NCBI RefSeq assembly: GCF_033153115.1
Contig: NW_026889750.1
Coordinates: forward strand, 3,844,001 to 3,908,000
Origin: Saccostrea echinata
Taxonomy: Eukaryota
Direction: 5' to 3'
Length of the DNA: 64,000 nucleotides
A program made the position numbers and the translations under genes. Each line of letters opens with the position of its first letter. The stretch's first letter is position 1. A model generated the notes under the pieces. It was not told the DNA's origin, did not search any database, and saw nothing but the letters and a program-made list of their open reading frames with translations. Positions 43,039-48,323 of this stretch are shown piece after piece.

Positions 43039-44982
43039 AAGTCAAATTCTCCCACAAACTGAAAATGTTTTCTTTGGTACTGATGCACTCTTACATGCAA
43101 ATAACGTAATCAGGGAGTGCAAATTGGATGATGAAATGATACCATTGGCCTTGTCGTATGTTCTGTAACTCATATTCCTTCCAATATAACGTAACTGTGA
43201 AACTAGCACCTAAAATATATCATTTCATTTTAAAAACTATCAACATTTTGTAATTATTAAATCATGGGGAAAATGTGTAGGATCTTAAATTACAACTTCT
43301 CATATATCAAAAAAGGGACTGGTCCCTTTCTAAGAGATCTAGTAGGCCGTAGTCTGTTTTATAGATCGCTGCGTACAGTTTGCGTTTGCAATTCATTATA
43401 CCAGAACTTCACTTTCGAATTAGACGGACGGGAATCTACTTTTTCCTAAAGCCACAAGTATTGAAATTATAGTTCTTATTTTTTATTTCAACTTTTCATT
43501 CATATCATTTCAACATGCTGCTTGTCAGAGCATGCATCTATTTTCCATACTTTTTTCATTTACTGCCTGCTCCCGACAACAAGCTCTCAGGATATCAACG
43601 GAGGTAATAAAAAAAACAAACTCAATTTTTTGAAGAATTAATGTTTTATTTCAACATCAAAAACATCATGCATTTACTATATACATATATACACATAGTG
43701 TATGAGTAAAATAATGTGAGTGATCCAGAGTTTCCTTGTCAGTAAACTAGATTGAGTATCTATCTATCTATCTATCTATCTATCAAATCTAATCTAATCT
43801 CTCTCTCTCTCTCTCTCTCTCTCCATCCATCCTTTTAAGAGCAAATAAAACTTTGCCAAATAAATAAAGACATCTGCTAAAGCATGCAGCAAATGAATTC
43901 TATAATTATACATATATAAAACATTGTCTATATGTACATCACACATAAGGGATCATAAAAATGCAGTGCAGAAACGGTGTGAACACTAACTGACGACAGT
44001 GGTACTGAGATGGTTATAATTTTGCCAAAACAATGCAACAACTGTGTTGTATGTATCAAACTGCACATTCATACACATGCCCCAAAAGAAGCGAGATTGT
44101 GCAAATTCAAAGCACATTTGTACTGTGATGATGGCGGCTTTCAGTATGTTTCAAATATTTGCAAACAATTTGCGCCCATGCAGACATATCCTACAAAAAA
44201 GAAAAAAAAAACACATCAATATCTATATTTATTGTACCTCATTTGATTTTTTTTTTTCTTTAAAATTAGATCGTTAGATGAGAACAATTTTCTAGAAATC
44301 GCTGTGAATGGACTAATTCCCGTTTTGCTGTGCGTTAGTCAAGTGAGCTAATTCCAGTTTTGAAAACTAATTTTGGGTTATCCGTAATATTCTCTAGAGA
44401 TCGCTGTGAGTTTTGCGTTGCGTCAATCAAATAAGCTGATCCCTGCTTCGAGAGCTAATTTCCAGTTATCATTAAACCTCTAGATTTTACTTTTGAATAT
44501 AGAAATCTGTATTATAAAACCTCGGAAAATAGTCCTAGCCTAGGGGAACTGGAATCTTGCTAACTCCCTCAATGGTATACTTTAACTGTGTAATATCATA
44601 AATACTAGAATATTTATCATGAGATTAGTGCGAAATATCCAGGCTTTTTTCAAGAATTTGATATTTGACGTGCAAATAAACGTTTTCCTGGCAGTCAAAA
44701 TCGTGGGGGGAAAAGTCAGGAAAACGTCAAATATTTTTGATTACGGACAAATATGAGCTCTGTTTTCTCCAAAATGTTAAAATTGATAGTCAATAAATTT
44801 AATAAGAGTTTGGGTATCTTCAAGTTTGGGACATCTCTGTGACCCTTTTGCGTGCTGTATTGCTAACACTTAAACGCTAAGGGTAATTTTAAAACAGGCC
44901 TAATTACAGGTGTGTGATTGTGAACTATTCTACATATTGTATTGAGTGCCAAGAGGGGTTACTTACCATATCAGTCTGCTCT

Positions 44983-47900
44983 TTAGTAGACATAAAAAGA
45001 GGAATTCAAGTCTTGTTTTTTGGTGGAGACTTTATGACGTCTCTGTTGTGGTATGTTACGGCGCATGGATCTGTGCTCAAAATTGACTCTCGCCAACCAC
45101 TCCATCTGTAAGAGATTTTTTTATATCGTAAACCTCTGTTATTTAATGACTTACAATCGTCCAAGTAAGGAAAGATAAAGCCCCCTACCCAATTTCATAC
45201 ATTTTGTATGAGTTTAAAAAGTATTATACATGTACGTTAGAACACTGCAAATGTGAGTTGGACACTTACCTGGTGCGTGGGTTGAGGTATGGTAGGAAGC
45301 TCCCTACGCTCCTCAGACTTGTTGATGGCATGGGTCAACTCATACTAGTAAAAAAATGATATTAAAAGCATAATGATAATTTATGTACAGCCAACGGAAA
45401 AATAAGCATTAGTCTTATTGATATACATTTTCATGTACATGTAATTACATGGTAACTGCAGTTGAAAATGCTAGCACTCAGACTCTTACCCAGTCTTTAA
45501 TGTGCTCTCTCCATTCGTGAGCAGCAGAAGTAAAGACTTGTTTGCACTGGAGAGAAATTATAGGGATTATAGAGAGTATTCACTGGAGAGATCGATCGAG
45601 AAAGAGAGAGAGAGAGAGGGAGTGTGAGAGAGAGAGGACTTACAGCTGATTTGGCCGCCAGGGCAAGCATCACCTCGTACCACTGACGACTGTCATTTGA
45701 AGAGGTGTCTATACGGCGCTAAAACGAAAAAAAAGAGCTATCGATTAAAAATTATGCACATTTTTGTAATGCTTTTCTAATGCTGGATAAATAACTAATA
45801 ATTTATCATAAATATGCTTTAATTTAACAGACATCGAATTTTCTCATAACTTTTATCTCGTATGCGGTGGCATGTACAATGTTTACAGTTTTGAAAAAAG
45901 GACTATGTATTTTACTGGCGGGGAAGGGGGGATTCATATTCAATTTAGGGGAGCATTATACCAAGCAAAAATTTCTTGACAAGGGAAAAAAGCCATCAGA
46001 CGTAATTATTGAAGGGGGGGGGGGGGGGCACGCGCCCCCTTCCGGGGGTTTTTACGTCAATATGATACGTTGTATTTGATTCTTTAAACTTTTATCAAGT
46101 ATTCCATTGCTTATATTTTTTTGTCTAAGAATTAAACATGTTAGCAATAAAATAGTTTTACCTTCACTTTTTCGCTCCTTTAAAAAAAGATACTCCCCCC
46201 AAAATGAAAGTATTTTCCCCGCCCAAAATGAAAAAAAACCTCCCAAACCTCATAATCCACCTAAGTCAAAAGTATCGTTTTCATCAAAATATTGTGATTT
46301 GAACGGCATGCCATATTGTTTCTGGATTTTTTTTTCTCAATCACATGTTATTTCTGTCGAAAATTCAAAATAAATTCAATTACAATATAGGAATGTGAAT
46401 TACAATCAATGTGATTTAACATATTGTGGTTATGCCGGTGTAGAGTATATGGTTAAAAGTTGCAGTCGTAAAAATAAGTACTTTAATGGTATTCAAAGAA
46501 GTGTTGCAGTTTTAAAATTAAGCAAAAATAAAGGCTTAAAAAGATGCATATTGTCAAATGGCCATACCAAGCGGAGGAGAAAGAACTGTTCAAATTTCAC
46601 ACAGTTACTGTCAGTCAAATAAATCATTGAAATTAAAAGGTTCCAGGTCCGTAGGAAGCAATTTCAGTTGGGGGGGGGGGGCACAGCCACACATTTTTCA
46701 GTTGGGGAGGGGGCACTATCAACCACCAAAAACTTGACAAGCTAAAAAAATGTCACCAGATGTTATTATTGAGGGGGGCACAAGCATATAGTAGAGCTCT
46801 ATGTTTTCTACACTATTCTATATATCACTATTCTATATATATATATTACAAGACTACTAGAAATTTCCAGTTAATAAATCTGTACATTCTAAATTAACAA
46901 AACTGAGAATTTCTGCACACCCTTTAGAAATTGAAATAGGCAGATATTCAAAGCCTTGTATCCAAAAAGAATCTCGTTTTTGTCACTATTGTAAAACTGT
47001 TGTAGAAAATGAAATACATTTCATATATGACTGTCCTATACATAAAGATTTGCAAAAAATGTATTATCTCTGTTCATATTATACTGTTTGCATAATGATT
47101 AATTGTATAACTTTAAGTTGTAAACATAGTTGACTTCACTGATTTGTACACTTGCATGTATGTATGTACTTTAGTGTATGTTTTAGCAAACTGGAAACAC
47201 ACTGTATTTTTCCGTCATTTTGTATGTAACATGGTTGCATGTTTGGTGAATCAATAAAAAAAAATTGAATTGAAGATATCGGCAAAATTATTGGGGAAGG
47301 GGGGCATGCCCCCAGTGCCCCCCGGTTCTTACGGCCATTGGTCCACATCAGATTTTTAAAACAATTACCTAAAAAAAAGTCAAAGGGGAACAAAAAGAAA
47401 ATTGCTGGAGTATCCTCCACTTGTAAATAGGGTTGCTGAAGAGTGCTTTCCCCTTTGTTTATAATTACCGACGTCAACATTGAGGTCAGATGATATAGAT
47501 ATTTTCTATTTTTAAATGATTACAATGATTTATTAGGCAAATATTGTCAGAAAGATACATTATAAAAAGTAACTTTACAAAGTTTTCATTAGATGTAATG
47601 TAGAATTAAAGACTGTCATTATTGAATGAAACATTTTATTTTGTTAACCGAATTTCCTCCGATTTTTTTTCCTGGCATATGCATTGCTTTCTGTCAATGT
47701 TTACATCGATGTTTTGAAGTTTCATTTTGTTTATCCTGCTCAAGCCCTTCCACTGAGGATTTGTTTGTTCATCCCATTATGTTGAAGTCCTTGTACTAAA
47801 ATAACTTTCTTATCCCTAACAACATCCCCCCTCCCCGGCCATTGTTGTGTTTGTCATGTGGGTGTGTACATTGTGTATAGTGTACATATGTGTTTTAAGA

Positions 47901-48144
47901 GATCGGTTGCATGTTTTCTCCAAATTATTTTCTCAAACAAATTGAGGAATACATGTTTTGTGTATAAATTTGTCAAAGTTAATAAATCAGACATTCCTGT
48001 ACTCCTTTGACCTCTTTGAAAATATTGTAAATAGCTCTAGATCATAAAAAGAAGCATTAAAGAGCAATGAAATTTTATTTTCTGAAAGATTACCCTTTTA
48101 GAAACATTCTTGCTCTTTCTCTCGGAAGACCTTTCTCTTTTCAT
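44983..48144 (-). CDS. Uncharacterised 126-aa basic protein, 5 coding exons plus a probable non-coding last exon (44190 to about 43625)
   Basis: Exons 48144-48094, 45718-45644, 45546-45490, 45344-45270, 45105-44983 have pyrimidine-AG acceptors and GTAA donors, all phase 0. They give MKRERSSERKSKNVSKRRRIDTSSNDSRQWYEVMLALAAKSACKQVFTSAAHEWREHIKDWYELTHAINKSEERRELPTIPQPTHQMEWLARVNFEHRSMRRNIPQQRRHKVSTKKQDLNSSFYVY*. Minus-strand AATAAA at 43645-43650. Confidence 0.7.
46644..47339. mobile_element. G-run MITE (family of 40101-41799) carrying a LINE 3' fragment
   Basis: caggtccgtaggaagcaatttcagttggg ... ccggttcttacggccatt; imperfect 5-bp flanks GGTTC and GGTCC. Confidence 0.7.
46845..47275 (+). mobile_element. 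5'-truncated non-LTR retrotransposon 3' end (RTE-X/CR1-type ORF2 C-terminal zinc finger)
   Basis: Reads LTKLRISAHPLEIEIGRYSKPCIQKESRFCHYCKTVVENEIHFIYDCPIH (CCHC finger); tail aataaaaaaaaattgaattgaa. Confidence 0.75.
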
Positions 48145-48323
48145 TGTGATATTTGAGATTTTTGTCGCTCTGTGAAAAGCACGTCTACTCGCAACTGATT
48201 GAAGTGAGTACCTAACAACAGTAACCAAAACGCAACGCTTCCTAGCAGTTACCAAGCAGGACGTCATCACGATGACAAAGCTAAAATATTAAAATTATTT
48301 AAAAATATGGTTTCTTACCTCTC

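Follow-up and report, generated by a model that had tools for sequence, protein, structure and literature searches.

One of the questions raised by the 64,000-nucleotide (nt) stretch of Saccostrea echinata DNA analyzed here (RefSeq assembly GCF_033153115.1, contig NW_026889750.1, positions 3,844,001 to 3,908,000; hereafter the window) is what kind of protein is encoded by five short exons on its minus strand, and what this protein does. Based on its structure, its copies and its annotation, it is virtually certain that this is a real protein-coding gene. It is a member of a multicopy family under purifying selection, with two isoforms, and relatives in Crassostrea virginica are biased toward the male gonad. 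The reading that we prefer is that the gene encodes a nuclear accessory protein of sperm-cell development, which would be turned on in the male germline through a cAMP response element (CRE). To this reading as a whole we give a probability of about 0.45.

The five coding exons have GT and AG ends, join in phase 0 throughout and keep one frame open over 126 amino acids (aa), exactly as a preliminary description of the window had read them. Exon 1 (48144-48094; 51 nt, 17 aa) holds the ATG and most of a basic stretch that resembles a bipartite nuclear localization signal (NLS). This stretch ends in exon 2 (45718-45644; 75 nt, 25 aa), with the NLS-like SKRRR spanning the first junction as described before, and is followed there by a predicted helix (residues 27-41) with a conserved WY. 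Exon 3 (45546-45490; 57 nt, 19 aa) is a cassette exon; residues 50-70 form the amphipathic helix that is predicted best, and its first half comes from this exon. Exon 4 (45344-45270; 75 nt, 25 aa) is the most conserved part. Exon 5 (45105-44967) contributes 123 coding nt (45105-44983; 40 codons and the TAA at 44985-44983), which encode an EWLAR helix and a basic tail, and 16 nt of 3' untranslated region (UTR). An intron in the 3' UTR (donor 44966, acceptor 44191) then leads to a non-coding last exon (44190-43625, 3' end approximate) with AATAAA at 43650-43645, which also agrees with the preliminary description. In the paralogues, too, a GT donor is found within ~20 nt past the stop. By the 50-nt rule for the distance from stop to junction, the mRNA of the window gene, whose stop lies 16 nt before the junction, presumably escapes nonsense-mediated decay. 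On the other side of the gene, the 5' UTR and proximal promoter block (48285-48145) is kept in all copies.

A search with exon 5 led to named oyster proteins. The product of the five exons is, letter for letter, XP_061170686.1 (LOC133180088 isoform X1, S. echinata, uncharacterized), and leaving out exon 3 gives exactly isoform X2. The gene had been called hidden; this holds for the track of open reading frames, but not for RefSeq, which already lists it. Three features are added here: the gene has many copies, exon 3 is a cassette exon that has been conserved, and the upstream region contains a transposon. The identity with both RefSeq isoforms, the open frames of paralogues with a low ratio of nonsynonymous to synonymous substitution rates (dN/dS) and the exon joint seen in contigs make the model more than a chance arrangement.

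These contigs come from four public runs (two samples of one study) whose RNA nature is the guess of a tool, none of the runs being on record as RNA. The joint between exon 5 and exon 4 (45105-45270) is present with canonical ends in all four, paralogues being pooled in; it bears out this part of the splicing model, whereas the junctions 1/2, 2/3 and 3/4 are not among the joints listed. Loose contig ends at 44970 accompany the 3' UTR intron in three of the four runs. Another loose end, in one run, is the exon 2/exon 4 junction of the paralogue L032, and therefore skipping of exon 3 occurs in the family. Over the last exon (43958-44188) the contigs show 1 difference in 231 letters and 0 in 134, against 86% identity for the nearest paralogue over the same exon, from which it follows that the window copy is probably transcribed. 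Contigs also cover 48135-48240 without splicing. A further loose end, at 45720 in run X1, is not exon 1, and a motif taken from it was found in 0 of 50 loci.

How many such genes does the oyster carry? Exon 5 is matched at 15 places in the S. echinata genome (nine on contig C1, two on C2 and four on C25), plus one remnant, and 15 is a lower bound. Thirteen of the 15 copies are intact; among the 14 full loci other than the window gene, 12 have no interruption in any of the five exons, and the exon ends are AG and GT, apart from one locus with a GC donor. This donor belongs to exon 3 of L030, whose RefSeq protein is without exon 3. In L022 the first part of exon 4 is gone. At L034/L035 (C25:21807464-21822368) a copy is split by ~12 kb with only the start of exon 3 removed, and therefore the form without exon 3 is still possible from it. 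The next paralogue lies 22 kb from the window gene. Introns 2-4 are 60-96% identical among copies over aligned bases, with many gaps, and outside the exons, including the last one, homology between copies seldom extends beyond the first ~140-200 nt upstream. No common outer boundary that would mark a carrier transposon was found among the copies, terminal repeats not having been searched copy by copy. The family is under purifying selection among the S. echinata copies: pooled over the 13 intact copies, dN is 0.078 and dS 0.294 (dN/dS 0.26, the pairs not being independent), and pairwise values against the window copy are 0.10-0.32. By exon the ratio is lowest in exon 4 (0.14) and highest in exon 3 (0.51), thus below 1 throughout.

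Beyond S. echinata, a profile search retained 51 of 2,264 candidate proteins at E up to 10. The named species are S. echinata, S. cucullata, Ostrea edulis, Magallana gigas, C. angulata and C. virginica, and 12 matches without a species name resemble fragments of the same genes. Each of these species has several loci, the core is 55-69% identical between genera, and for several species RefSeq holds forms with and without the 19-aa block; RefSeq isoforms that include exon 3 and others that lack it are known from Saccostrea, Magallana and Crassostrea. HMMER, run without an index against 1.84 billion representatives, gave 14 matches. One of these, P0108, was dropped as a repeat-rich chance match, and another is a new, distant S. 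cucullata protein of 335 aa, which hhalign aligns with the family at a probability of 95.8 (E 6.5e-9). Its relatives form a long subfamily (330-370 aa) with named members in oysters only. In S. echinata the coding exons of the long gene measure 51, 564, 72, 57, 75, 126 and 81 nt, all in phase 0; exons 1, 3 and 4 of the short gene are matched in size, including the 51 nt of exon 1, and the skippable 57-nt exon is common to both. The 19-aa block is found in six long proteins and missing in one. Loci of the long subfamily lie at C8:10136323-10139590 (L047) and at 1.47 and 1.50 Mb of C47 (L048, L049), with a remnant at C47:16.39 Mb (L050). The extra exon of 564 nt, RxxPY motifs, which we take to resemble NLSs of the PY type, and a C-terminal part that is strongly conserved between Saccostrea and Crassostrea distinguish the long forms. 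A quick tree of 56 rows splits long from short forms at support 100 and groups the short forms mostly by genus, with 28 of its 53 inner branches open. We found no named relatives outside oysters in searches of annotated proteins, two types of which need shared words; the family thus appears, so far, to be confined to oysters. RefSeq entries of S. echinata (LOC133180088), M. gigas (LOC105329583 and LOC105321847), C. virginica (LOC111124628) and O. edulis (LOC125671538) are the same gene or family, with both isoforms predicted. They are annotated singly as uncharacterized, several formerly as non-coding RNA (ncRNA), and carry neither a family name nor a domain or a function. Searches of open-access full text, supplements being mostly outside this scope, gave no paper on the family, also by 12 LOC numbers. 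The gene is annotated but uncharacterized, and the family is undescribed, though of a familiar kind, that of lineage-restricted multicopy testis genes.

Where are these genes expressed? In the part of the C. virginica gonad data of PMC12040131 that was consulted, six of the 11 known loci could be looked up, the other five carrying newer numbers. Three short genes are higher in male than in female gonad (LOC111124628 by +12.4, LOC111138374 by +6.0 and LOC111107379 by +4.8 log fold), and two long genes are shifted toward male gonad by +7.5 and +6.6 (PMC12040131). Male bias is thus found in five of six family genes (three of four short, two of two long), against 524 male-high genes among 35,736 overall; a binomial test that treats the two subfamilies as independent gives 2e-4, the copies themselves not being independent. 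LOC111124628 is third in the male-sorted block, within the part of 300 of the table that was examined, and the same block holds TSSK3-like, ODF3-like, RFX4-like, sperm H1/PL-like, axonemal dynein and CCDC63/151-like genes (PMC12040131). Four of the six family genes are labelled ncRNA in this data set. By extension from these relatives in another species, expression of the window copy in the male germline is quite likely. Ciliated or germline expression had been hinted at before; the germline half is backed by the male-gonad bias, while the ciliated half finds no specific support.

The promoter region suggests how the copies could be turned on. Copies agree at 80-93% over the 140 nt that precede the ATG, and a perfect CRE, TGACGTCA, stands at -121 to -123 in 11 of 15. 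The window copy has the one-base variant TGACGTCC (48266-48259, minus strand), and the same strand of the block carries GGTAACTG (48253-48246), TTGCGT (48235-48230) and GACGTG (48185-48180). In the two long genes examined a CRE likewise stands at -121/-122, with TTGCGT and GACGTG at matching places, and a second CRE at about -285 is found in nine of the 14 other short copies. Because perfect CREs number 42 in the 264 kb examined, family promoters counted in, it is the fixed position and not the motif alone that counts as evidence. The motifs that had been listed upstream (48205-48270) are all present; of the two readings given to them, the CRE gains from a position conserved in both subfamilies, whereas the RFX reading is weaker, since the long subfamily does not share the GGTAACTGCTAGG stretch and the best X-box sites have 3 mismatches in 13. 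With this X-box pattern, which was picked after sight of the sequence, the window gives 19 such matches versus 33 expected, and no full X-box lies near the gene. GGTAAC occurs at -109 in 14 of 15 copies and presumably fits an RFX half-site, and TAACTG within the GGTAACTGCTAGG stretch we take to be a MYB site. We infer from these motifs that transcription factors may bind here. A donor-like AG|GTAAG (48312-48320, minus strand), kept in 11 of 15 copies, is a possible end of an upstream non-coding exon, with the donor at 48318; together with an acceptor-like TTTTCACAG at 48170 on the same strand, conserved in short-family copies, it suggests that the 5' UTR may contain an intron that is spliced optionally and that there is a second promoter.

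The protein itself is basic, with an isoelectric point (pI) of 10.3, 21% Lys+Arg and a net charge of +12. The charge is concentrated in exons 1 and 5, and exons 2-4 are neutral; in ten short proteins Lys+Arg makes up 19-23% and Asp+Glu 10-14%. We take the N-terminal start to fit the pattern of a bipartite NLS, and its two basic clusters are found in 74 of 75 short proteins that start with MKR, isoforms counted separately. That no family is recognizable, as had been said, is confirmed by Pfam, in which five short proteins have no family above the cut-off, with one weak row (RRM_PARP14_1, E 0.098) in one of them and no Linker_histone row at E up to 10; ten proteins of the long subfamily likewise match no family above the cut-off. 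Against the sequences of the PDB the only row is a chance one, a chitinase at E 0.95, with no histone. In the ESM Atlas neither the short protein nor the C-terminal part of the long form has a usable match, which shows neither absence nor novelty. AlphaFold2 on 30 sequences predicts helices at 27-41, 50-70 and 85-92 with no confident packing, helix 50-70 having the highest confidence and being the most amphipathic, and the model of the long form has a predicted confidence (pLDDT) of 48. The fold search that had been proposed was made, but with a short-form model whose predicted TM-score (pTM) is 0.26: Foldseek against the PDB gave 0 matches, and the best VIA-align hit has Z 3.5 (root-mean-square deviation 13.6, 78 aligned), with 0 of 48,161 chains at Z >= 5, which is uninformative for such a model.

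Putting these features together, a mechanism can be suggested. A factor of the CREB/CREM type would turn the copies on in male germ cells via the conserved CRE, and the basic N-terminus would act as a bipartite NLS. A nuclear location of the protein is predicted and seems somewhat more probable than not. The 60-residue core would consist of three short helices that fold on a protein partner, with no folded enzyme, and the basic ends may contact DNA or RNA, most likely the chromatin of spermatocytes or spermatids; that the protein is a chromatin-associated adaptor is a tentative proposal. Including or leaving out exon 3 would add or remove half of the main amphipathic helix and might thereby switch partner binding. 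Many copies may have been retained for dose in a short transcription window.

Several points weigh against this nuclear germline reading. The AlphaFold2 model of the short protein has low confidence (pLDDT 61, pTM 0.26), and several RefSeq isoforms of the family have alternative N-termini or first exons without the basic stretch. The window copy itself has a mutated proximal CRE and a distal CRE that is out of contact. Male bias in the whole gonad does not separate germ from somatic cells. Pseudo-mapping among near-identical copies means that the five male-biased matches are not independent, and old and new LOC numbers were assumed to be the same genes. In the consulted part of PMC12040131, the short gene LOC111133027 has no sex bias in gonad, and in gill four of the six family genes pass the expression filter without a sex effect, two not being listed. 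A single-nucleus study of the gonad (PMC10987912) labels genes by LOC numbers, and 0 of 6 C. gigas members appear in its marker tables as seen, although multi-mapping reads or incomplete files could mask them. The supplements seen of PMC12564202, PMC8353863, PMC12111275 and PMC11556341 gave no match and are uninformative, as their ID format may differ.

Other functions have to be considered as well. One is a structural role in the cytoskeleton, the centriole or the tail of sperm, where small, basic, helical proteins line the microtubules. A disordered chain with short helices, as predicted here, is typical of these, and the GGTAAC at -109 presumably speaks for RFX control. Yet almost every short form has the NLS-like start with its two clusters, the long subfamily does not share the RFX-like stretch, and axonemal proteins are usually widely conserved whereas the named relatives here are from oysters only. 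Even with ODF3-like, axonemal dynein, CCDC63/151-like and RFX4-like genes as male-high companions in the part consulted of PMC12040131, we consider such a structural role unlikely. A protein of germ granules, or one that binds RNA, with a task in the storage or timing of spermatid mRNAs would account for the Arg-rich disordered ends of a protein with a net charge of +12, for the Trp-bearing helices and for the male-gonad bias of the relatives. This is improbable, with no such domain above the Pfam threshold (RRM_PARP14_1 at E 0.098 in one of five proteins) and no RG or RGG repeats visible in the alignment. Being small, basic and multicopy, with male-biased relatives, the protein could also be a major DNA-packing protein of sperm, i.e., a protamine-like (PL) sperm nuclear basic protein (SNBP). 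SNBPs of the PL type have about 35-50% Lys+Arg and few acidic residues, and the family has only 19-23% Lys+Arg, 10-14% acidic residues and no linker-histone match. SNBPs are said to derive from histone H1 in the portion seen of PMC5550673, and C. gigas sperm is reported to be without SNBPs in that of PMC12684338, which cites Sellos 1985. A packing role is, in our judgment, very improbable.

Another hypothesis is a conflict in the germline, in which the copies would drive or suppress according to their dose, like wtf, Dox or Slx/Sly, with two isoforms or promoters opposed. The copies are dispersed over three contigs with little common flank, the quick tree clusters them mostly by genus, the relatives are male-biased, the design with two isoforms is conserved, and two CREs have a donor-like site between them. 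In an oyster system of conflict or chromatin remodelling built on such dispersed copies, two CRE promoters and an ancient cassette exon, full and exon-3-less nuclear proteins would oppose each other, and their dose ratio would control spermatid chromatin or transmission. Rapid protein evolution is not what we see, however: dN/dS by exon is 0.14-0.51, far under 1, the core remains 55-69% identical across genera, and more than half of the inner branches of the tree (28/53) are open. We regard a conflict system as quite improbable. A last option, to which we give almost no weight, is a Myb-like accessory gene of the Harbinger transposon next to the gene, which has Trp-bearing helices and stands head to head with a spliced transposase ~310 nt from its ATG. 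This candidate was rejected: the gene lies outside the left end of the element (48325), among the listed matches copies of the element end and copies of the gene occupy different places, in the two closest paralogues (2/2) the host flank is uninterrupted at the insertion point, resuming at window 54377, and no Myb, SANT or MADF row was found in Pfam. The nuclear accessory protein of male germ cells is the reading that we prefer.

The Harbinger/PIF-type insertion itself spans 48325-54376 on the plus strand and is outside the gene family. Its transposase (DDE_Tnp_4, E 9e-14) has five exons with further insertions in the first intron, and the joint 48882/53213 is seen in one of the four runs. Sequence like its left end occurs on many other contigs, and at least six of them have close copies of the element (93-98%). 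An inverted repeat at the right-hand side was looked for but not found, and together with the empty site in the paralogues this indicates a truncated 6-kb insertion that pushed the distal CRE away from the window copy. The displaced upstream flank (54377-54600, minus strand) now lies 6 kb off, with a perfect distal CRE at 54464-54471.

Elsewhere in the window, a MITE-like (miniature inverted-repeat transposable element) element with matching ends (54659-55681) is overlapped in each of the four runs by numerous diverged contigs, and a 146-bp satellite of ~8 copies lies at 40310-41578. Between the gene and the next paralogue, a tandem array with a 341-bp unit (57300-64000; 98% matches at 60216-62269) sits within a larger duplication. 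Five near-perfect X-box-like palindromes at ~155-bp spacing (10460-11083) are probably a satellite or a Helitron-type repeat. The neighbours are a gene for protein phosphatase inhibitor 2 (2249-2521), a SET/MYND/TPR gene (12220-14268), which we take to be SMYD4-like, and a HEAT-repeat gene (20930-23733) that resembles HSPBP1. Rfam gave 0 matches over 42000-57000.

What can be gained from this family? As far as the C. virginica data set was seen, an unnamed family holds one of its most male-biased gonad transcripts, and it offers a ready marker of the male phase in an aquaculture animal that changes sex. Oysters are sex-changing animals whose sperm is reported to keep histones. If protamine-like proteins are absent, the family is a candidate for maturation of the oyster sperm nucleus. 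A cassette exon and a CRE that are common to two distant subfamilies point to a conserved switch.

Lineage-restricted multicopy testis genes are a common kind, and mouse Slx/Sly and Ssty, Drosophila Stellate and Dox, and fission yeast wtf are such families of testis or germline. The oyster family resembles them in being multicopy (15 copies), biased toward the male germline (five of six relatives, in whole gonad) and lineage-restricted, with small products and an apparent lineage-wise expansion. It differs in its strong purifying selection and in having no known sex chromosome or sign of drive, and no link in sequence to these families was found, although no search aimed at them was made. With the Myb/SANT accessory genes of Harbinger/PIF elements it shares a small basic Trp-bearing protein beside a DDE_Tnp_4 transposase at one locus, but the oyster gene lies outside the element and the adjacency is due to a single insertion. 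Compared with bivalve PL-I to PL-IV, as given in the portion seen of PMC5550673, the protein is likewise small, basic and of the male gonad. In contrast to them, it has no detected relation to histone H1, a much lower Lys+Arg content and an acidic-neutral, Trp-bearing core, encoded by a gene of six exons that include a cassette exon.

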